Below are positions 46,501 to 52,500 of a stretch of DNA of 64,000 nt, one piece after another. Position 1 is the first letter of the stretch. Each line of letters opens with the position of its first letter. The notes under the pieces are model-generated. The model had not been told where the DNA came from. It saw nothing but the letters and a program-made list of their open reading frames with translations, and did not search any database. Source of the stretch: Leucoraja ocellata. Lineage: Eukaryota. The stretch is from positions 2,542,001-2,606,000 of the forward strand of contig JAWMAR010000318.1 of the NCBI GenBank assembly GCA_036785375.1, written 5' to 3'. The position numbers and the translations under genes are program-made.

Positions 46501-49500
46501 TAGAACCTTTAGAATAGAGATGAGGAGGCATTTCTTTAGCCAGAGGGTGGTAAATCTGTAGAATTTATTGTCTCAGACTGTGGTGGAGGCCAAGTCATTG
46601 GATATTTTTAAAGCGGAGATTGATAGGTTATTGATTAGGAAGTGTGTCAGGGAGAAGGCAGGAGAATGGTGTTGAGAGGGAAAGATAGATCAGCCATGAT
46701 TGAAAGGTGGAACAGACTCGATGGGCTGGATGGGCCTAATTTTGCTCCTATGTCTTCTGAATTGTTACATCGCAAGAACCAAATTGTCATCTCTTTGTAC
46801 AACAGCATGTTCTTCATTACCCAGTCGATCAGTCCTATTCTTATTAACTCAAATGTTATTGTTCCAATAATAACAGAATACCCTACAGAATATCCATGGA
46901 ATATGAAGTGCAATTGCTTTTTGTGCCTTCAGTCATTAATGAGAGATTTGTTTGCCAAAATTCAAGTGCTGCTTTTCTTCATTTATTTTTCAGGAATGGT
47001 AACTACAATTACGTAATCCCAATCAACAAATACACTCCTGTAGATATGAGGATTACATTAGAAATAAAGTGAGTACGTCTTTTTTTTTCCTTCTCTTAGT
47101 ACATTGCACACTCGTAGGTCTATAGGCACCAAATTCAACCTGATGTTAATTCTTTCTCTCTCCACTATTGCTGCCTGTCCTATTGAGTATTTCTGCAGCG
47201 TTTTTTGCCTTTATTATACGCATCAATTTTGTTTGACCATGGATTTTAAAGAATCGCATTATCCAAAAGAGCTTCCTGAAATGTAAGTGACTGGATTTTA
47301 TTGAGCAATTCAAACAAACAATCATTGGTTATACAAAAAAGCTGGAGAAACTCAGCGGGTGCAGCAGCATCTATGGAGCGAAGGAAATAGGCAACGTTTC
47401 GGGCCGAAACCCTTCTTCAGACGTCTGAAGAAGGGTTTTGGCCCGAAACGTTGCCTATTTCCTTCGCTCCATAGATGCTGCTGCACCCGCTGAGTTTCTC
47501 CAGCTTTTTTGTGTAACCTTCGATTCTCCAGCATCTGCAGTTCCTTCTTAAAAACAATCATTGGCTTGATATATTAAATGCCTTTCCTCATAGACCATTG
47601 TTGAGGTACCAATGAAAGGCTAACAGGGATGTAATTTTACTTCGGAGTCACGTGAGTGATTCCGTGAAGACCCCAGCTCCAGTGCGCATGCGGCATTGTC
47701 GCACAGCGTGCAGAACGCGGCAGCCAGCGGGAGTCGGGCTAGCTCCCGCATCCAGGGACGAGAGGTAAGTACTTACCTTAATCGGGCCTTGTGATTTTTG
47801 CTCCAGGGGGAGCAAAGTGAGGCATGGTGAGCGGGCCCCGTTTCGACTCCAGCGTGGGGCCGACAGTGACGGGGAAAAGGTGCCACCCGGACCGCTAACG
47901 CTGCGGACCGCTACTAGGAGCTGCGCTAATGCCGGTCCGCTGAACAGCTGTTCCGTACAGCCGCGGACCGGCGGGAAAATTTTAAAAAACCCGACCGGCA
48001 GCCCTGCAGACTCCTGACCAGGAGAATAACCGCCCGGGAACCGCCACAACGCCGCCTGGAAAACGGCAGGCAGCCTCTACTTACAGGTAAGGGGAAATCT
48101 TACCAATTTACAGGTTCTACAGGAGCCATCTTCCTCCAAGCTGGAACAGGTTGGAGAAGGCAAAATAAGTATGTCTGTCTCCCCAAGCCAGAGGAGGTCA
48201 TGAAGTTTACCTCCAGGAGAAGGACTGCCTGCCCAACTCCACATGAGGGTCCTTATCTGGGAGGCAGCCACCGGTAGCGGTGGAGCTATTTCAATGCTCC
48301 CGCTCACTCGACACCGAGCCGCTCCCTGTGCCACCGGTGTAAAGGGGCACTGGCTGAATGCCAAGGGAGCTGACTCCTACCCCAGTGCTATTGCACTAGC
48401 CATCTCCCTTGTCGAGGGATTGATGCAACAAGGGAGTGGAGTGCTTTGCCTCCTCCCATTTAGCGCATCCTTTATGCTCCTTTTTTAAGGGCTAAGGAGG
48501 CCAGGGCTGGGCTGGCTTAAGCGCTGGGCAGGCGGACGAGAACAGCAGTATGCCAGGGGAGCAGGATCAGGAAGAGCCACTGGGTGTCGTGGGCCACTAC
48601 ATGGCTCCTCCACGCGACCATCTTCCCAACAAAAGCCCTGCAGGAGCAGGCCTTTCCAGAGGCAAATCCGCAGGCAGCCGGGTCTCGTAGACTCACAGAC
48701 AAGCAGCGAATTCTACAGAAGGTCAAGATGTTACCACCTTTGCTCGCCTTTGGTGCTGACGCCTAAGATGTTCCCATATTTGGGATACTCGACTGAACGA
48801 TGGTGCATATAGACCTGCCCGCAACCCCGAATATATGGGGCTATGCAAACCGCTGCTGCGGGGAAGAGGGAGCAGGCTATGGGACGAGCAGGACATCACA
48901 TCCAACACCCAGCTGGCAGCACCCCTCGGCATCCACCAGCAATATCAAACAAGGACTGGTGAAAGCCTGGTGACCGCTGTAGATCCCCCATAGTTCTTTT
49001 TAGACGGGGCCCAGAGCGGAGCCGTGGGAAGATGCGCCGCCCCACCGACAGCACCAGCATACCAGCAAACTACGCCTTCATGAACAACAACAAGCATGGA
49101 GGTAGGTAGTCTGGTTCCTCCCAGTTTACACTAAAACAAGGGTGTTCTACTAAACTGCATGGGGAGTGGGCTAAGCATGGGATGCTGTCACAAATAACCA
49201 AAATATACTCAACAGCATTAGAGGATACAAACGAATTCAAATTGGGCATTTTACTGCCAGTTCAGCAATGCGCCCAAAGGGCTGTTTCTCCCTCTAAGAA
49301 AAGAGAAGTGAGAAGGCAAGCTGAACTAAACAGGCACATTACTAAACGGATTGGAATTTGTATCGAATATATTCACCAAAACTATAAAAGATGATGAATG
49401 TAGCATCATCATTGATCTAATATCACTAAATAAATCTGTTGAGTATATCCACTTTAAGATGGAGGTGGAGTTTTGTCACTGCCAGACATCTGATCTCCCT

Positions 49501-52500
49501 AGGATACCTATGGGGAGCATTGATATGGAAGATGCTAACTATCTTACACCATACACTAGGATCATTATAGATACCTAAATATATTTACCTGGATCATGGA
49601 TATCCCGGTTAGGGCAACCATGGGAACATATAGCATTTCATATGGTCTAAACCTCAGCCCTAAACTATTATAATATTAAGAAAACAAGCATAATCATGGC
49701 ACATATTGGATGATATCCTCATATTAGGGGAAACAAAGGAATTAGCTGTGGAGCAGTTCTAGCTACGAAACAGCTCCCTAAAGCTGAGGTTCATCCCATG
49801 CCCAGATAAACCAGAATTGAAGCGTTACTACCAAGGATTATCTGGGCTTCAATAATAATTCCGTCCATATGACTGTACCCACTGAAGCTATATCACAATT
49901 AAGGTGGTGGGCAGACATATATTTGGCATAGTTTTCAGCCCTATTATCATCACCAATCCCAACTTGGTTATTTTAAAAACCAATGCCAGTACTTTAGGCT
50001 GGGGAGCAACTAAACTCCATATCCAGCACAGGTAACAGATGGACCAAGTCACAAACATCGTTACTACACATACCGGGCATCAACTTCTTGGGATTGGTGA
50101 TCGCCTATTGGGCTAAAAAGCATATGCATTTCAAATGCAGCACGTACATATGTGGTTACGGATTGATAATACTATGGTGGTGGCTTATATCAACCATATG
50201 GGGAGCATAATAATCATTATTGTGCAACAAATTGGTCAAACAAATCTGGCAATGGTGTGTCAAAAGACATTTTAACTATCAGCTCCCTATGTCCTAGGAA
50301 GCTAGAACGCAGTGGGAGACACCATGTCACGGGGTAAAATTTATGATTACATTGAATAGATGTCATAACCCAAAATATCTGCTAAATTTATTAAGCAGTT
50401 TGAAAGCCAGATATCAATTTGATTGCACAAGACGGAATCACCAGTAACCCATGTATGTGACTTAGGAACCAGATTAGAGGCAGCAGCGATAGATGCCTAT
50501 ACGCTGGAAGGGGGAATTTCTGCTTTGCCTTCCTCCCTTCTGCCTCATCAGTCGGGCACTTCGCAATACAGATGGGATCTGTCTCCGAGATATTGAACGT
50601 GCCCGACCGGCCTACAGCCATGGTTCCCAGTTCATCACGACACGGTGGGCGAGTCACCTATGGATTTCCCTAGTGGACCATGGTTGCTGACTCAACCCAG
50701 TATCAGGCATAAGCCACCCATGCCAGGGAAACATCAAACTCCTGGGTGCAGGTTTTGAATAGACCTTACCAGGGACTGGGATTATCCAAAGGAACCATTA
50801 CCACCATGTCGGCATCCCTGTGAACAGTCACTAAAAGCTAACATGGGTAAAATACTGCCACGACGCAGGGACATCGAACTATTCAACCACTGACGTATTG
50901 GAGTTCCTGGAACATCTACACCATGACTTAAAGGTGAGTTACAGTGCCGTAAATACAGCATGGAGCGCCTTATCTGCTTATCTAAAACTGCATGTCAGCA
51001 GAGCATGGGATCCCATCCACTGAAGGTAACTTATGAAGGGCAACTATAATATAAGCCCCAAACACCCAGGTATTTACCCATGTATGGGATATTGGTGTGA
51101 TATTGACATACCTCAGAGAATGGCACCAGCCAGATCCCTCAGCTTGCTTAATCTATGTTTTAAAAAAAAAAAGGCTCATGCTTATGGCTCTCGTACACGC
51201 TCAAAGAGTCCGGTCACTCCATAAACTAGACTGGATACATGGTGATTATCCCAGACGCATCAAGTTCATATTTAGGTCTGGTAAAATCTAACTCGCAGGT
51301 ATATGGATTCGGCACGAACTAGCAGGGTCGAGATCGCCTGTGTTTTCTGTGCTGTAGTCGTTATATGGCTATATGGACCAGGAACGCCCAATTCACTGGT
51401 GGGATTCCGGGCCTACCCACCAGAGTCCAGGTTGAGTGTGGTGACCCATCTACTACTATATATAGACACAACCCACTATCTTAGAGGGAGAGGAAAGCCT
51501 ATGGGTCAACCACAGTAACCCGAAACGGGGTTCGAGCCAAACCACTCCAAGGTGGCTCAAACAGGTACTGAAAGCTGCCGGAATAGATAATAATACATTT
51601 AATCCCATTCCACTAGGGCAGCATTGGTATCAGCGGCTGAACGAATGGACATCCCGGTTGACCACATTTTCAATACAGCAGAATGGTCAAGGGAACCGCG
51701 TTCAGAACATTTTTTGTTATAAACTGTTGATAAACCTGATTTAATTGCAGGAGAATATTACAAACTGCAATATTAATTTAAGCTCAGAGGAGCTCTGTTA
51801 TGTTGTTATTGTTAACAAATACCTTTCTGTTTCTTTTGAAAGCAGATCCACTGGTTGATTACGATAACACTTCCTCCCTCATAAACTTCGGCAGTGAGTG
51901 AAATAAAAACTGTTACACGGTTTGAAATCACAGACCTTTGAAGTCTTCACGGAATCACTCACGTGACTCCGAAGTAAAATAGTAAGATTAAACGAGTACT
52001 TACCAGTACGAAGTTTGATCTGTATTTTATGAGGAGTTACGGTGAGGGATTAAGTGCCCGCTGCTCCCACCCTCATTATACAGATCGAACTAGTAGACTG
52101 ATGTCTCGTGATCTTTACTATCTTACTTCAAATATTGTGTCTATTCTGTGATTTCACACCGCTGCTTCGAAGTATGCCGCATGCGCACTGGAGCTGGGGT
52201 CTTCACTTAATCCCTCACCGTAACTCCTCATAAAATACAGATCAAACTTCGTACTGGTAAGTACTCGTTTAATCTTACTATTAAATTTCAGAAGTCATGA
52301 CATCAGTGGCACTTTGGGTTAATTTTAATTGTAGGTGCGTAAGTCGTGTGGCATTGTCAGTTTGCAGATCTGACTATAAAGGCATTAGATGTCTAAGGAA
52401 GAAGAGCAAGGGTCACTTCTTTTTCAAGCACTCTTTGAGTATCAGAAGTATAGTTCCAGGATTCACAAGGCTCCCTCGTGCCTGGCTTGTTTTACTGTCA

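Follow-up and report, generated by a model that had tools for sequence, protein, structure and literature searches.

Probable stepwise gene loss in a full-length, coding-dead DIRS1-like lineage represented by a young insertion in Leucoraja ocellata

The window, a stretch of 64,000 nucleotides, carries at 47634..52282 what is very probably a young copy belonging to a DIRS1-like lineage that is full-length and coding-dead and whose genes were lost stepwise across subfamilies, likely while it was copied repeatedly by the reverse transcriptase (RT) and tyrosine recombinase (YR) of intact DIRS relatives. The lineage consists of many dispersed copies that have disabling lesions in common and that keep the cis signals found in coding relatives. 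Because its subfamilies are nested, its terminal branches are short and its trunk lacks a CpG excess, decay likely took place during continued replication. Mobilization in trans we infer from the lack of ORFs of its own combined with new insertions at ATT.

Ends, ICR and coding remnants of the element

The ends, the ICR, insertion at a 3-bp core, and homology in RT/RNase H and YR place the element among DIRS1-like retrotransposons; the three intact ORFs of an autonomous member are lacking. Its features, all on the + strand, are as follows.

47634..52282, +: whole DIRS1-like element, 4,649 bp (family length ~4,702 bp); young copy, coding-dead lineage
47634..47636, +: left ATT crossover core; ATT recurs at 52280-52282, and the empty site has a single ATT
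47634..47671, +: left terminus, complementary to left ICR 51943-51980 (38/38)
47664..47696, +: left ITR core, against right ITR core 52174-52206 (33/33)
47697..48221, +: 5' non-coding region that only the dead lineage has; already in basal rungs, aligns poorly to sampled ORF-bearing copies
48222..48340, +: 119-nt insertion, like the ORF1 start of ORF-bearing DIRS (best 79%)
48341..49060, +: ORF1 (gag-like) remnant with numerous deletions and frameshifts
48963..50755, +: ORF2 remnant (RT, RNase H, methyltransferase-like); 46 frameshifts and 11 stops common to at least 27 of 30 copies
49870..49880, +: point of the founding 174-nt deletion, fused here with a private 45-nt deletion
50752..51770, +: ORF3 remnant (tyrosine recombinase); 19 frameshifts and 1 stop common to at least 27 of 30 copies
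51287..51370, +: ~82 nt of foreign sequence inserted into the YR remnant and resembling a dispersed host repeat (81-84%); acquired mid-ladder
51606-51617, +: HSTR motif in the YR remnant
51771..51942, +: 3' non-coding region upstream of the ICR, with AATAAA; conservation above that of the ORF remnants
51943..52056, +: ICR, 114 nt; AAT junction at 51978-51980
52174..52206, +: right ITR core, 33/33 against the left ITR core
52204..52282, +: right terminus/extension, ending in ATT, complementary to right ICR 51978-52056 (79/79)

The exact matches between termini and ICR (38/38 and 79/79) and between the ITR cores (33/33) are as the initial annotation had described them. The ICR halves overlap at a 3-bp AAT junction, complementary to the ATT at both element ends. 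Terminal repeats are inverted only; the direct repeats seen are short chance pairs, which leaves no split direct repeats of the TOC1/PAT or Ngaro type. Zero mismatches over 150 positions would have a chance of 0.27-0.74 at the divergence of the family, as opposed to 1e-7 at 10% divergence. Any DIRS copy that inserted recently should have perfect ends; the informative point is the pairing of young ends with a decayed interior. Among copies, the terminal ends, the ICR and both ITR cores co-vary, and in 50 of 75 scorable copies the left and right ITR cores are identical, with 9 distinct matched variants.

The coding regions are riddled with stops and frameshifts, as had been claimed for RT, RNase H and YR, and ORF1 is broken too. 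Counted against the natural open ORFs of relatives from the same genome, the window copy has 58 disabling changes in ORF2 (RT/RNase H/MT), 23 in ORF3 (YR) and ~40 in ORF1; these counts come from pairwise DNA alignments in which gap placement shifts the exact figures and ORF1 is poorly alignable. A further private deletion of 13 nt follows 49671, and the longest open frame on the + strand within the element measures 115 codons. The RT/RNase H and YR remnants are co-oriented, with YR last, and their DNA shares 80-85% identity with open ORFs matching Pfam RVT_1 and Phage_integrase. One of 16 window fragments gave an informative Pfam match (Phage_int_SAM_4), and a protein database search with a 92-residue YR fragment returned 28 candidates, none at E<=0.001. 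Open relatives contain DIDLFAS and FPPF motifs, which may mark a methyltransferase-like domain after RNase H; they have no Pfam match and are broken in the window. At the position of ORF1, relatives have an open frame of 419-500 codons, also with no Pfam match.

Upstream of the remnants, the 119-nt insertion is confined to the youngest subfamily and one older copy (L076), and a near-identical donor was not found among the loci compared. A DNA search with the 5' region gave family copies only (40 of 40 scored). GGTAAG motifs in that region resemble splice donors.

Dispersed copies and nested lesions

End-to-end alignments were obtained for 29 other copies (32 scored places), with identical ATT...ATT ends and unrelated flanks; the exception is L025 and L027, whose common flanks indicate that one duplication took place. 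As the initial annotation had anticipated, other copies carry the same disabling indels at high identity: at least 27 of 30 copies, ~99.5% alike, have 57 lesions of the RT/RNase H reading frame and 20 of the recombinase reading frame in common, and the same stop-bounded 92-codon frame appears in 149 of 150 scored matches. The lesions are thus inherited across copies and are not the private marks of a single one. The genome holds 361 exact family-specific left ends, hence at least 361 young copies, and 1,009 ITR-core matches, i.e. ~500 copies. Carriers of the founding deletion, counted with a gapped junction motif that recovered variants, number 1,819 (exact block) to 1,845 (3 mismatches) genome-wide; with three positions left free, the junction motif matched 388 times, with no new variants among the 100 matches listed. 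Selecting copies by short exact motifs or by best score biases the sample towards young copies, yet 1,845 barely exceeds 1,819.

The insertion site of the window copy was looked up in public sequencing runs, of which X4 and X7 are without cover of the right flank. A contig of run X2 passes from left flank through a single ATT to right flank, with no further target duplication, and run X1 contains the filled junction, so the proposed search for an empty site succeeded. The target bias, R-ATT-AAAY, is equal in dead (58) and ORF-bearing (15) copies. L005, L009 and L013 each split an ICR at its core. A circle-junction sequence would be the ICR reversed, and genomic insertions into ICRs resemble it. 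Among indexed runs, none that holds the element is listed as RNA; in three raw RNA runs (organism B), cover of the interior is low and in both directions, subfamilies are mixed and read-through may contribute.

In all 40 additional deletion carriers sampled, the ORF2 lesions form nested subsets of the 64 found in the window family. These carriers define at least eight rungs, each with its own young dispersed copies and with 6, 7, 12, 20-21, 29-32, 34-42, 44-49 or 58-60 lesions; the rung-7 copy was scored over 46 lesions only, in its retained part, and 5 of 20 copies of one batch lacked one end inside the fetched stretch. Near-full length (4.5-4.9 kb) is kept in 30 of 33 older copies. In a tree that includes 10 of the 30 window-family copies and from which L079, L096, L097, L106, L062 and L065 were dropped (anchor missing or length out of range), the dead copies are monophyletic (0.985) and comb-shaped, with a trunk of 0.133 substitutions per site and terminal branches of 0.0005-0.020. 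Strict nesting is broken by some copies, e.g. L076 and L112, the tree being blurred by recombination between rungs.

Replication clock, candidate helpers and alternative explanations

Several properties of the trunk point to change during copying. Its CpG-transition ratio is 0.97, compared with 4.3 for private post-insertion changes (Fisher p=5e-10) and an intermediate 2.4-2.6 for older-rung singletons; CpG positions changed on the trunk at 15 of 156, the only positions this test has, where ~54 would be expected under genomic decay. CpG o/e is 0.55-0.61 across all rungs and 0.57-0.63 in ORF-bearing copies. A pN/pS of 0.75 in the dead lineage, against 0.06-0.27 on five control branches, indicates that coding constraint was lost. 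The ICR changed on the trunk at 4 of 135 sites, compared with 206 of 2,151 in the ORFs (p=0.008). RNA editing was considered as a source of the trunk changes and rejected, strand bias being absent (C>T 45, G>A 50, A>G 43, T>C 42).

Likely, then, the trunk mutated at least 10x faster than the host genome or ageing integrated copies. If each cycle is assumed to introduce 1e-5 to 1e-4 errors per base, 0.13 corresponds to 1,300-13,000 serial cycles, at least the copy number in the genome, a point that speaks against this reading. A possible but doubtful extension takes the dead interior as a neutral tape of DIRS replication: 0.13 substitutions per site and ~80 stops and indels within ~0.01 of host divergence would exceed what integrated copies explain, through a cycle that is much more mutagenic or much more frequent, and might then reflect unusually error-prone copying in this animal, or RNA-cDNA-circle rounds without integration, in a helper/defective germ-line population with several independent full-length dead lineages on one shared ICR.

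The search for intact DIRS with the same termini, suggested in the initial annotation, led to elements of this genome that have three open frames and a closely matching ICR. Three open frames occur in 4 of 20 fetched relatives (L065, L066, L068, L071), which are possible candidate helpers, although open frames do not prove function. The window ICR is identical to that of L066 at 110 of 114 positions, with one exact run of 87 nt. Other findings count against the preferred reading. The 33-nt ICR core has 14,318 exact occurrences and is common to families that are 62-80% alike internally. In an even sample of 20 ICR carriers, no copy kept ORF2 and ORF3 both unbroken relative to the L056 frames, a rough measure for distant families. 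Mismatches between ends and ICR amount to 21/1,650 in 15 ORF-bearing copies, which look older, and to 3/2,970 in the window family; this comparison excludes L022, L027 and L029, and the flank analysis also L081 and L095.

According to the published DIRS model, described as proposed and not fully proven (PMC5633606), the RNA is without tips, the ICR serves as template for rebuilding them during cDNA synthesis, a circle forms and the recombinase inserts it at the 3-bp core. Applied to the dead element, helper DIRS proteins would act in trans; every round would add copying errors, which would be tolerated in the useless interior and purged from the ICR and 3' signals, and foreign pieces would enter through occasional template switches.

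The initial annotation had viewed the element as an old coding-dead copy mobilized as a full-length non-autonomous family. Shared lesions and a full-length family were borne out; the dormant old copy was not. That one old copy decayed while dormant until a helper mobilized it in one burst, with the ends restored through the ICR or through recombination, is highly improbable. The window subfamily does form a tight burst (mean pairwise distance 0.5%; computed, like its private changes, without L027, and its end check also without L029), and the stem of 0.043 before the oldest sampled rung could contain dormant time. However, even this subfamily has two sub-branches (16 substitutions common to 11-13 of 29 copies), the nested rungs with their young, short-branched copies limit dormancy to the unsampled stem, the trunk shows no CpG loss, and the ICR changed less than the ORFs. 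Long-lived master copies in succession, changing at the host rate in unmethylated transcribed sites, would make a fast replication clock unnecessary and would account for the missing CpG excess; a succession of master copies yields comb-shaped trees, which fits the tree obtained. This explanation is nonetheless very unlikely: in copies of the oldest rungs, terminal branches measure 0.007-0.015 and the end-vs-ICR mismatch is 5/550, against 0.133 on the trunk above, and with such young copies the host clock is too short for the trunk, unless the sample missed old copies.

Spread as DNA with no reverse transcription, through segmental duplication, gene conversion or recombinase-only excision and reinsertion, is scarcely credible. 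One duplication (L025/L027) is of this kind, and the dead lineage is known here from DNA, the RNA intermediate and circle coming from the model. Yet the remaining copies have unrelated flanks and exact ATT ends, the empty site has a single ATT, a trunk at 10x the host rate would not be expected, and co-varying ends, ICR and ITR cores are what the reverse-transcription model predicts (PMC5633606). That errors of assembly or sequencing produced the frameshifts in an element that is really intact, the other objection raised at the outset, has almost no chance of being true. A few private 1-nt indels and the longer poly-A at 51162 may be errors, but identical lesions recur at 29 further loci, which lie on different contigs or at a great distance, lesions follow a nested order among the sampled carriers, and open frames of 694-697 codons are present in the same assembly. 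Short reads and contigs of four public runs, being independent, fit the broken sequence at >=95% and thereby argue against assembly error. Repeated copying of a dead lineage by intact relatives is the preferred explanation.

Comparison with known systems

In a lineage that replicates free of coding constraint, cis needs can be told apart from protein needs: the genes are lost and the ICR and 3' signals are kept, ITR cores drift yet stay matched, and length hardly shrinks. The dead lineage also gives a direct estimate of the DIRS replication mutation spectrum in a germ line. For annotation, a wrecked interior does not here mean an old element, and dating by divergence from consensus would misdate the lineage; it accounts for ~1,800 places, ~1/8 of the 14,318 exact matches to the ICR core, and the sampled copies are all young.

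The LARD/Sukkula, Dasheng and Morgane elements of grasses are reportedly long non-autonomous LTR retrotransposons that lack coding capacity and presumably depend on autonomous partners for their movement, and Morgane is said to keep degenerate pol remnants. They differ in being integrase-type LTR elements of plants, with target-site duplications.

Closer at hand is the DIRS1-like ITR+ICR type with ATT ends (Piednoel et al. 2011, PMC3266345), which has the same split termini and two ICRs overlapping at AAT. The ITR of 33 nt and ICR of 38+79 compare with 31-36 nt and 39-45 + 86-88 in mollusc DIRS1-like entries, and the putative order gag - RT/RH/MT - YR and the length of 4.7 kb are also as described there (PMC3266345). 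Unlike the DIRS1-like elements of that paper, whose main text does not contain the word 'autonomous', the window lineage is without an intact ORF and its broken state is a family trait. SIRE, a truncated non-autonomous derivative of VIPER, is likewise derived from a tyrosine-recombinase retrotransposon, but is ~0.4 kb and made by deletion (PMC6681497), whereas the window lineage is near full length. Among Xenopus Repbase DIRS consensus families, 36/75 and 13/20 are given with degenerate ORFs or repeats (PMC9210276), and some of these may be the same phenomenon; that paper's text treats them as degeneration, with shared lesions and continued mobility not assessed, and its Table S1 may list such families.

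In the literature searchable in full text (main texts, with Repbase and Dfam outside), no description of a full-length non-autonomous DIRS lineage of the ITR/ICR type was found, and exact phrases led only to a remark on TOC1. TOC1 of Chlamydomonas reinhardtii, termed a non-autonomous DIRS retrotransposon, is similarly a mobile, multi-kb, non-coding element of the DIRS order (PMC9940879). TOC elements, however, have split direct repeats of the PAT type (PMC3266345), in contrast to the ITR/ICR of the window lineage, whose interior, again unlike TOC1, consists of recognizable, progressively decaying parental genes with intermediates preserved. TOC1 is thus the published precedent for a non-autonomous DIRS, and what is new here is the ladder of nested lesions, in place of one old copy reawakened.

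Element structure and insertion site

The window element has ATT at both ends, and the halves of its internal complementary region (ICR) share AAT at 51978–51980, a layout matching the DIRS1-like architecture in the available text of PMC3266345. The initial annotation had described mutation-free termini around wrecked coding regions. Both parts of that description hold: each end is an exact complement of the ICR, the cores of the inverted terminal repeats (ITRs) match exactly, and the longest plus-strand frame in the element spans at most 115 codons. The element and its neighboring repeats are as follows.

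47634–52282, DIRS1-like element
47664–47696 and 52174–52206, ITR cores
51943–52056, ICR
47320–47525, head-to-head inverted pair of a very abundant short repeat, 103-nt arms, 95% alike, no spacer
52662–53463, MITE-like element, inverted arms of 77 nt separated by 648 nt and 95% alike, with a run of N inside

RNA depth of ~1,600–1,900 at 47320–47525 derives from copies of that repeat elsewhere. At the window family's divergence, a young copy has a probability of 0.27–0.74 of retaining perfect ends; flawless ends alone are unremarkable, and the informative feature is their contrast with the decayed interior.

A check for an empty site, suggested with the initial annotation, found one in public run X2, where a 1,113-nt contig joins the element's left flank, a single ATT, and the right flank, while the filled right junction occurs in run X1 with zero differences. 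Run X2 carries a different organism code, and its flank mismatches at 4 of 201 positions; the empty site therefore comes either from a closely related species or from a haplotype that has diverged. Family words are similarly represented in the two organism codes (0.65 and 0.63), yet X2 lacks this insertion, as judged at window positions 52255–52480.

Target sites of 58 dead copies (carriers of the ORF2 deletion described below) give the consensus R-ATT-AAAY, with a purine at −1 in 51 and A at +1, +2, and +3 in 46, 38, and 37; 15 ORF-bearing copies show a similar bias. Three of the 58 inserted exactly at the ICR junction of another DIRS element. Joining the right end to the left end, as in a circle, creates two inverted arms, ATTAAAC-like and ATTTTAC, flanking a 6-bp CTTACT spacer, and the preferred target ATT-AAAY resembles one arm. 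The junction may be akin to dif-type sites and the integron GTTRRRY core.

Shared lesions and stepwise decay

A DNA search of the 3.44-Gb genome, with 32 places scored, yielded 30 near end-to-end copies, the window's included, at 97%–98% identity with gaps, and two interrupted copies. The mean pairwise substitution distance in this family is 0.5%, and flanks are unrelated except at loci L025 and L027 (G000:C389). This pair, one insertion with identical flanks lying twice on a single contig, in opposite orientation and ~0.9 Mb apart, reflects either duplication or assembly redundancy. The subfamily-specific left end occurs exactly 361 times, and the ITR core, present twice per copy, 1,009 times with up to three mismatches.

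Lesions were called against the natural open frames of relatives. As to whether other copies carry the same disabling lesions, at least 27 of the 30 have in common 46 frameshifts with 11 stops in ORF2, 19 frameshifts with one stop in ORF3, and ~39 lesions in ORF1. The window copy departs from the majority by a further ~20 substitutions and has, in addition, a longer poly-A and two deletions, of 13 and 45 nt. Assembly error is ruled out as the source of the frameshifts, because the broken sequence agrees with reads and contigs from four public runs.

The founding mark of the dead lineage is a 174-nt ORF2 deletion. Its junction has 1,819 instances in the genome when the flanking blocks must be exact, and 1,845 when up to three mismatches are allowed. 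Forty carriers were fetched outside the window subfamily, 20 by the exact junction and 20 by junction variants, and each of the 40 holds a set drawn from the 64 ORF2 lesions seen in the window family. These subsets are largely nested, with counts by rung of 6, 7 (a partial copy), 12, 20–21, 29–32, 34–42, 44–49, and 58–60; ORF3 lesions rise in parallel from 1–2 to 23 of 26. Length stays near 4.7 kb (4.2–5.2 in 33 older copies).

In a 54-sequence tree, the dead copies form one comb-shaped clade (0.985), sister to loci L054/L055, with a trunk of 0.133 substitutions per site versus terminal branches of 0.0005–0.020. End-versus-ICR mismatch, used as an independent age gauge, is 5/550 in the basal rungs; the three rungs that follow have 5/871, 10/1,430, and 1/550, and the window subfamily has 3/2,970. 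Because terminal branches are short and these mismatches low relative to the trunk, change along the trunk is at least 10 times the ageing of the oldest sampled copies. Coding constraint is lost on the dead branch (pN/pS 0.75 versus 0.06–0.27 on control branches).

Among changes that postdate insertion, CpG transitions reach 4.3 times background, and 6.0 times in a smaller set, the pattern that methylated host DNA should produce. The trunk ratio is 0.97, with 15 of 156 CpG positions changed versus ~54 expected, and CpG content is equal on every rung. Singletons of older rungs have an intermediate ratio (2.4–2.6), as expected if host-time changes are mixed with unsampled replication history.

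Conserved signals, candidate helpers, and mechanism

The ICR changes at one third of the ORF rate (p = 0.008); no slowing is seen in the left 70 nt (0.15) or in the 5′ region (0.16). Along the ladder, the 5′ region keeps a perfect 16-nt palindrome around GGTAAGT (47763–47778) and further splice-like motifs (48080–48125). ITR cores drift yet match within a copy, although the ICR overlaps just 8 nt of the core: there are nine variants, and of 75 copies, 50 have identical cores while most of the rest differ by a single base. The pattern agrees with the account in the available text of PMC5633606, in which most of the right repeat is absent from the RNA and then remade. The YR remnant gained ~82 nt of host repeat and the youngest subfamily 119 nt resembling the ORF1 start, pieces that may have been acquired by template switching.

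Starting from locus L042, a neighboring, less broken DIRS element, numerous loci with an open RT frame of 694–697 codons were located. The suggested search for intact elements with related termini yielded candidate helpers: in four of 20 fetched loci (L065, L066, L068, and L071), all three frames are open and both ends are present. Overall identity of these elements to the window family is 73%–79%, but the window-family ICR is identical to that of L066 at 110 of 114 positions. In two three-ORF copies scanned, ORF2 and ORF3 match RVT_1 and Phage_integrase. The genome contains 14,318 occurrences of the ICR core, and 20 evenly sampled carriers represent many families with interiors 62%–80% alike, none with unbroken frames against the reference frames. 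Loci L053–L071, which bear ORFs, likewise form a comb ~0.2 substitutions per site long with short tips, parallel to the dead lineage. At L072 (G000:C407:980500-988700), the segment from ICR to right end lies inverted, the outcome expected if the right ICR had recombined with the right terminus.

In the published DIRS model, ends are rebuilt on the ICR, and the resulting circle is inserted by the recombinase; circular cDNA was demonstrated for DIRS-1 of Dictyostelium, while the model as a whole is described as not yet fully proven (PMC5633606, available text). The observations here comprise the structure of the family, its decay in steps, the conservation of cis signals, an ATT crossover, and open-frame relatives. 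Very probably, dead copies would have been mobilized by proteins supplied in trans, with copying errors during replication as the source of interior decay. With the error rates of retroelements, 1,300–13,000 serial cycles would be required for the trunk, versus ~1,800 copies. Either most intermediates failed to reach fixation in the host, or the cycle makes more errors, or it can run repeatedly without integration.

Comparison with known elements

Architecture and homology place the window element in the DIRS1-like superfamily, and it is not autonomous. Other-family DIRS pairs also have many ORF2 lesions in common (21 in L114/L132 and 17 in L118/L126); they likely represent additional coding-dead lineages that arose independently and use the same ICR, and the phenomenon has thus probably recurred. 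Long non-coding derivatives of LTR retrotransposons are well known in plants. Non-autonomous tyrosine-recombinase retrotransposons have already been published, namely TOC1 (PMC9940879) and SIRE (PMC6681497), each as described in the available text. The literature searched, a scope without Repbase, Dfam, and a large part of the earlier DIRS literature, gave no account of a full-length dead lineage of the ITR/ICR type. The present case contributes the preserved ladder, together with evidence from the clock and from CpG sites for decay in the course of replication.
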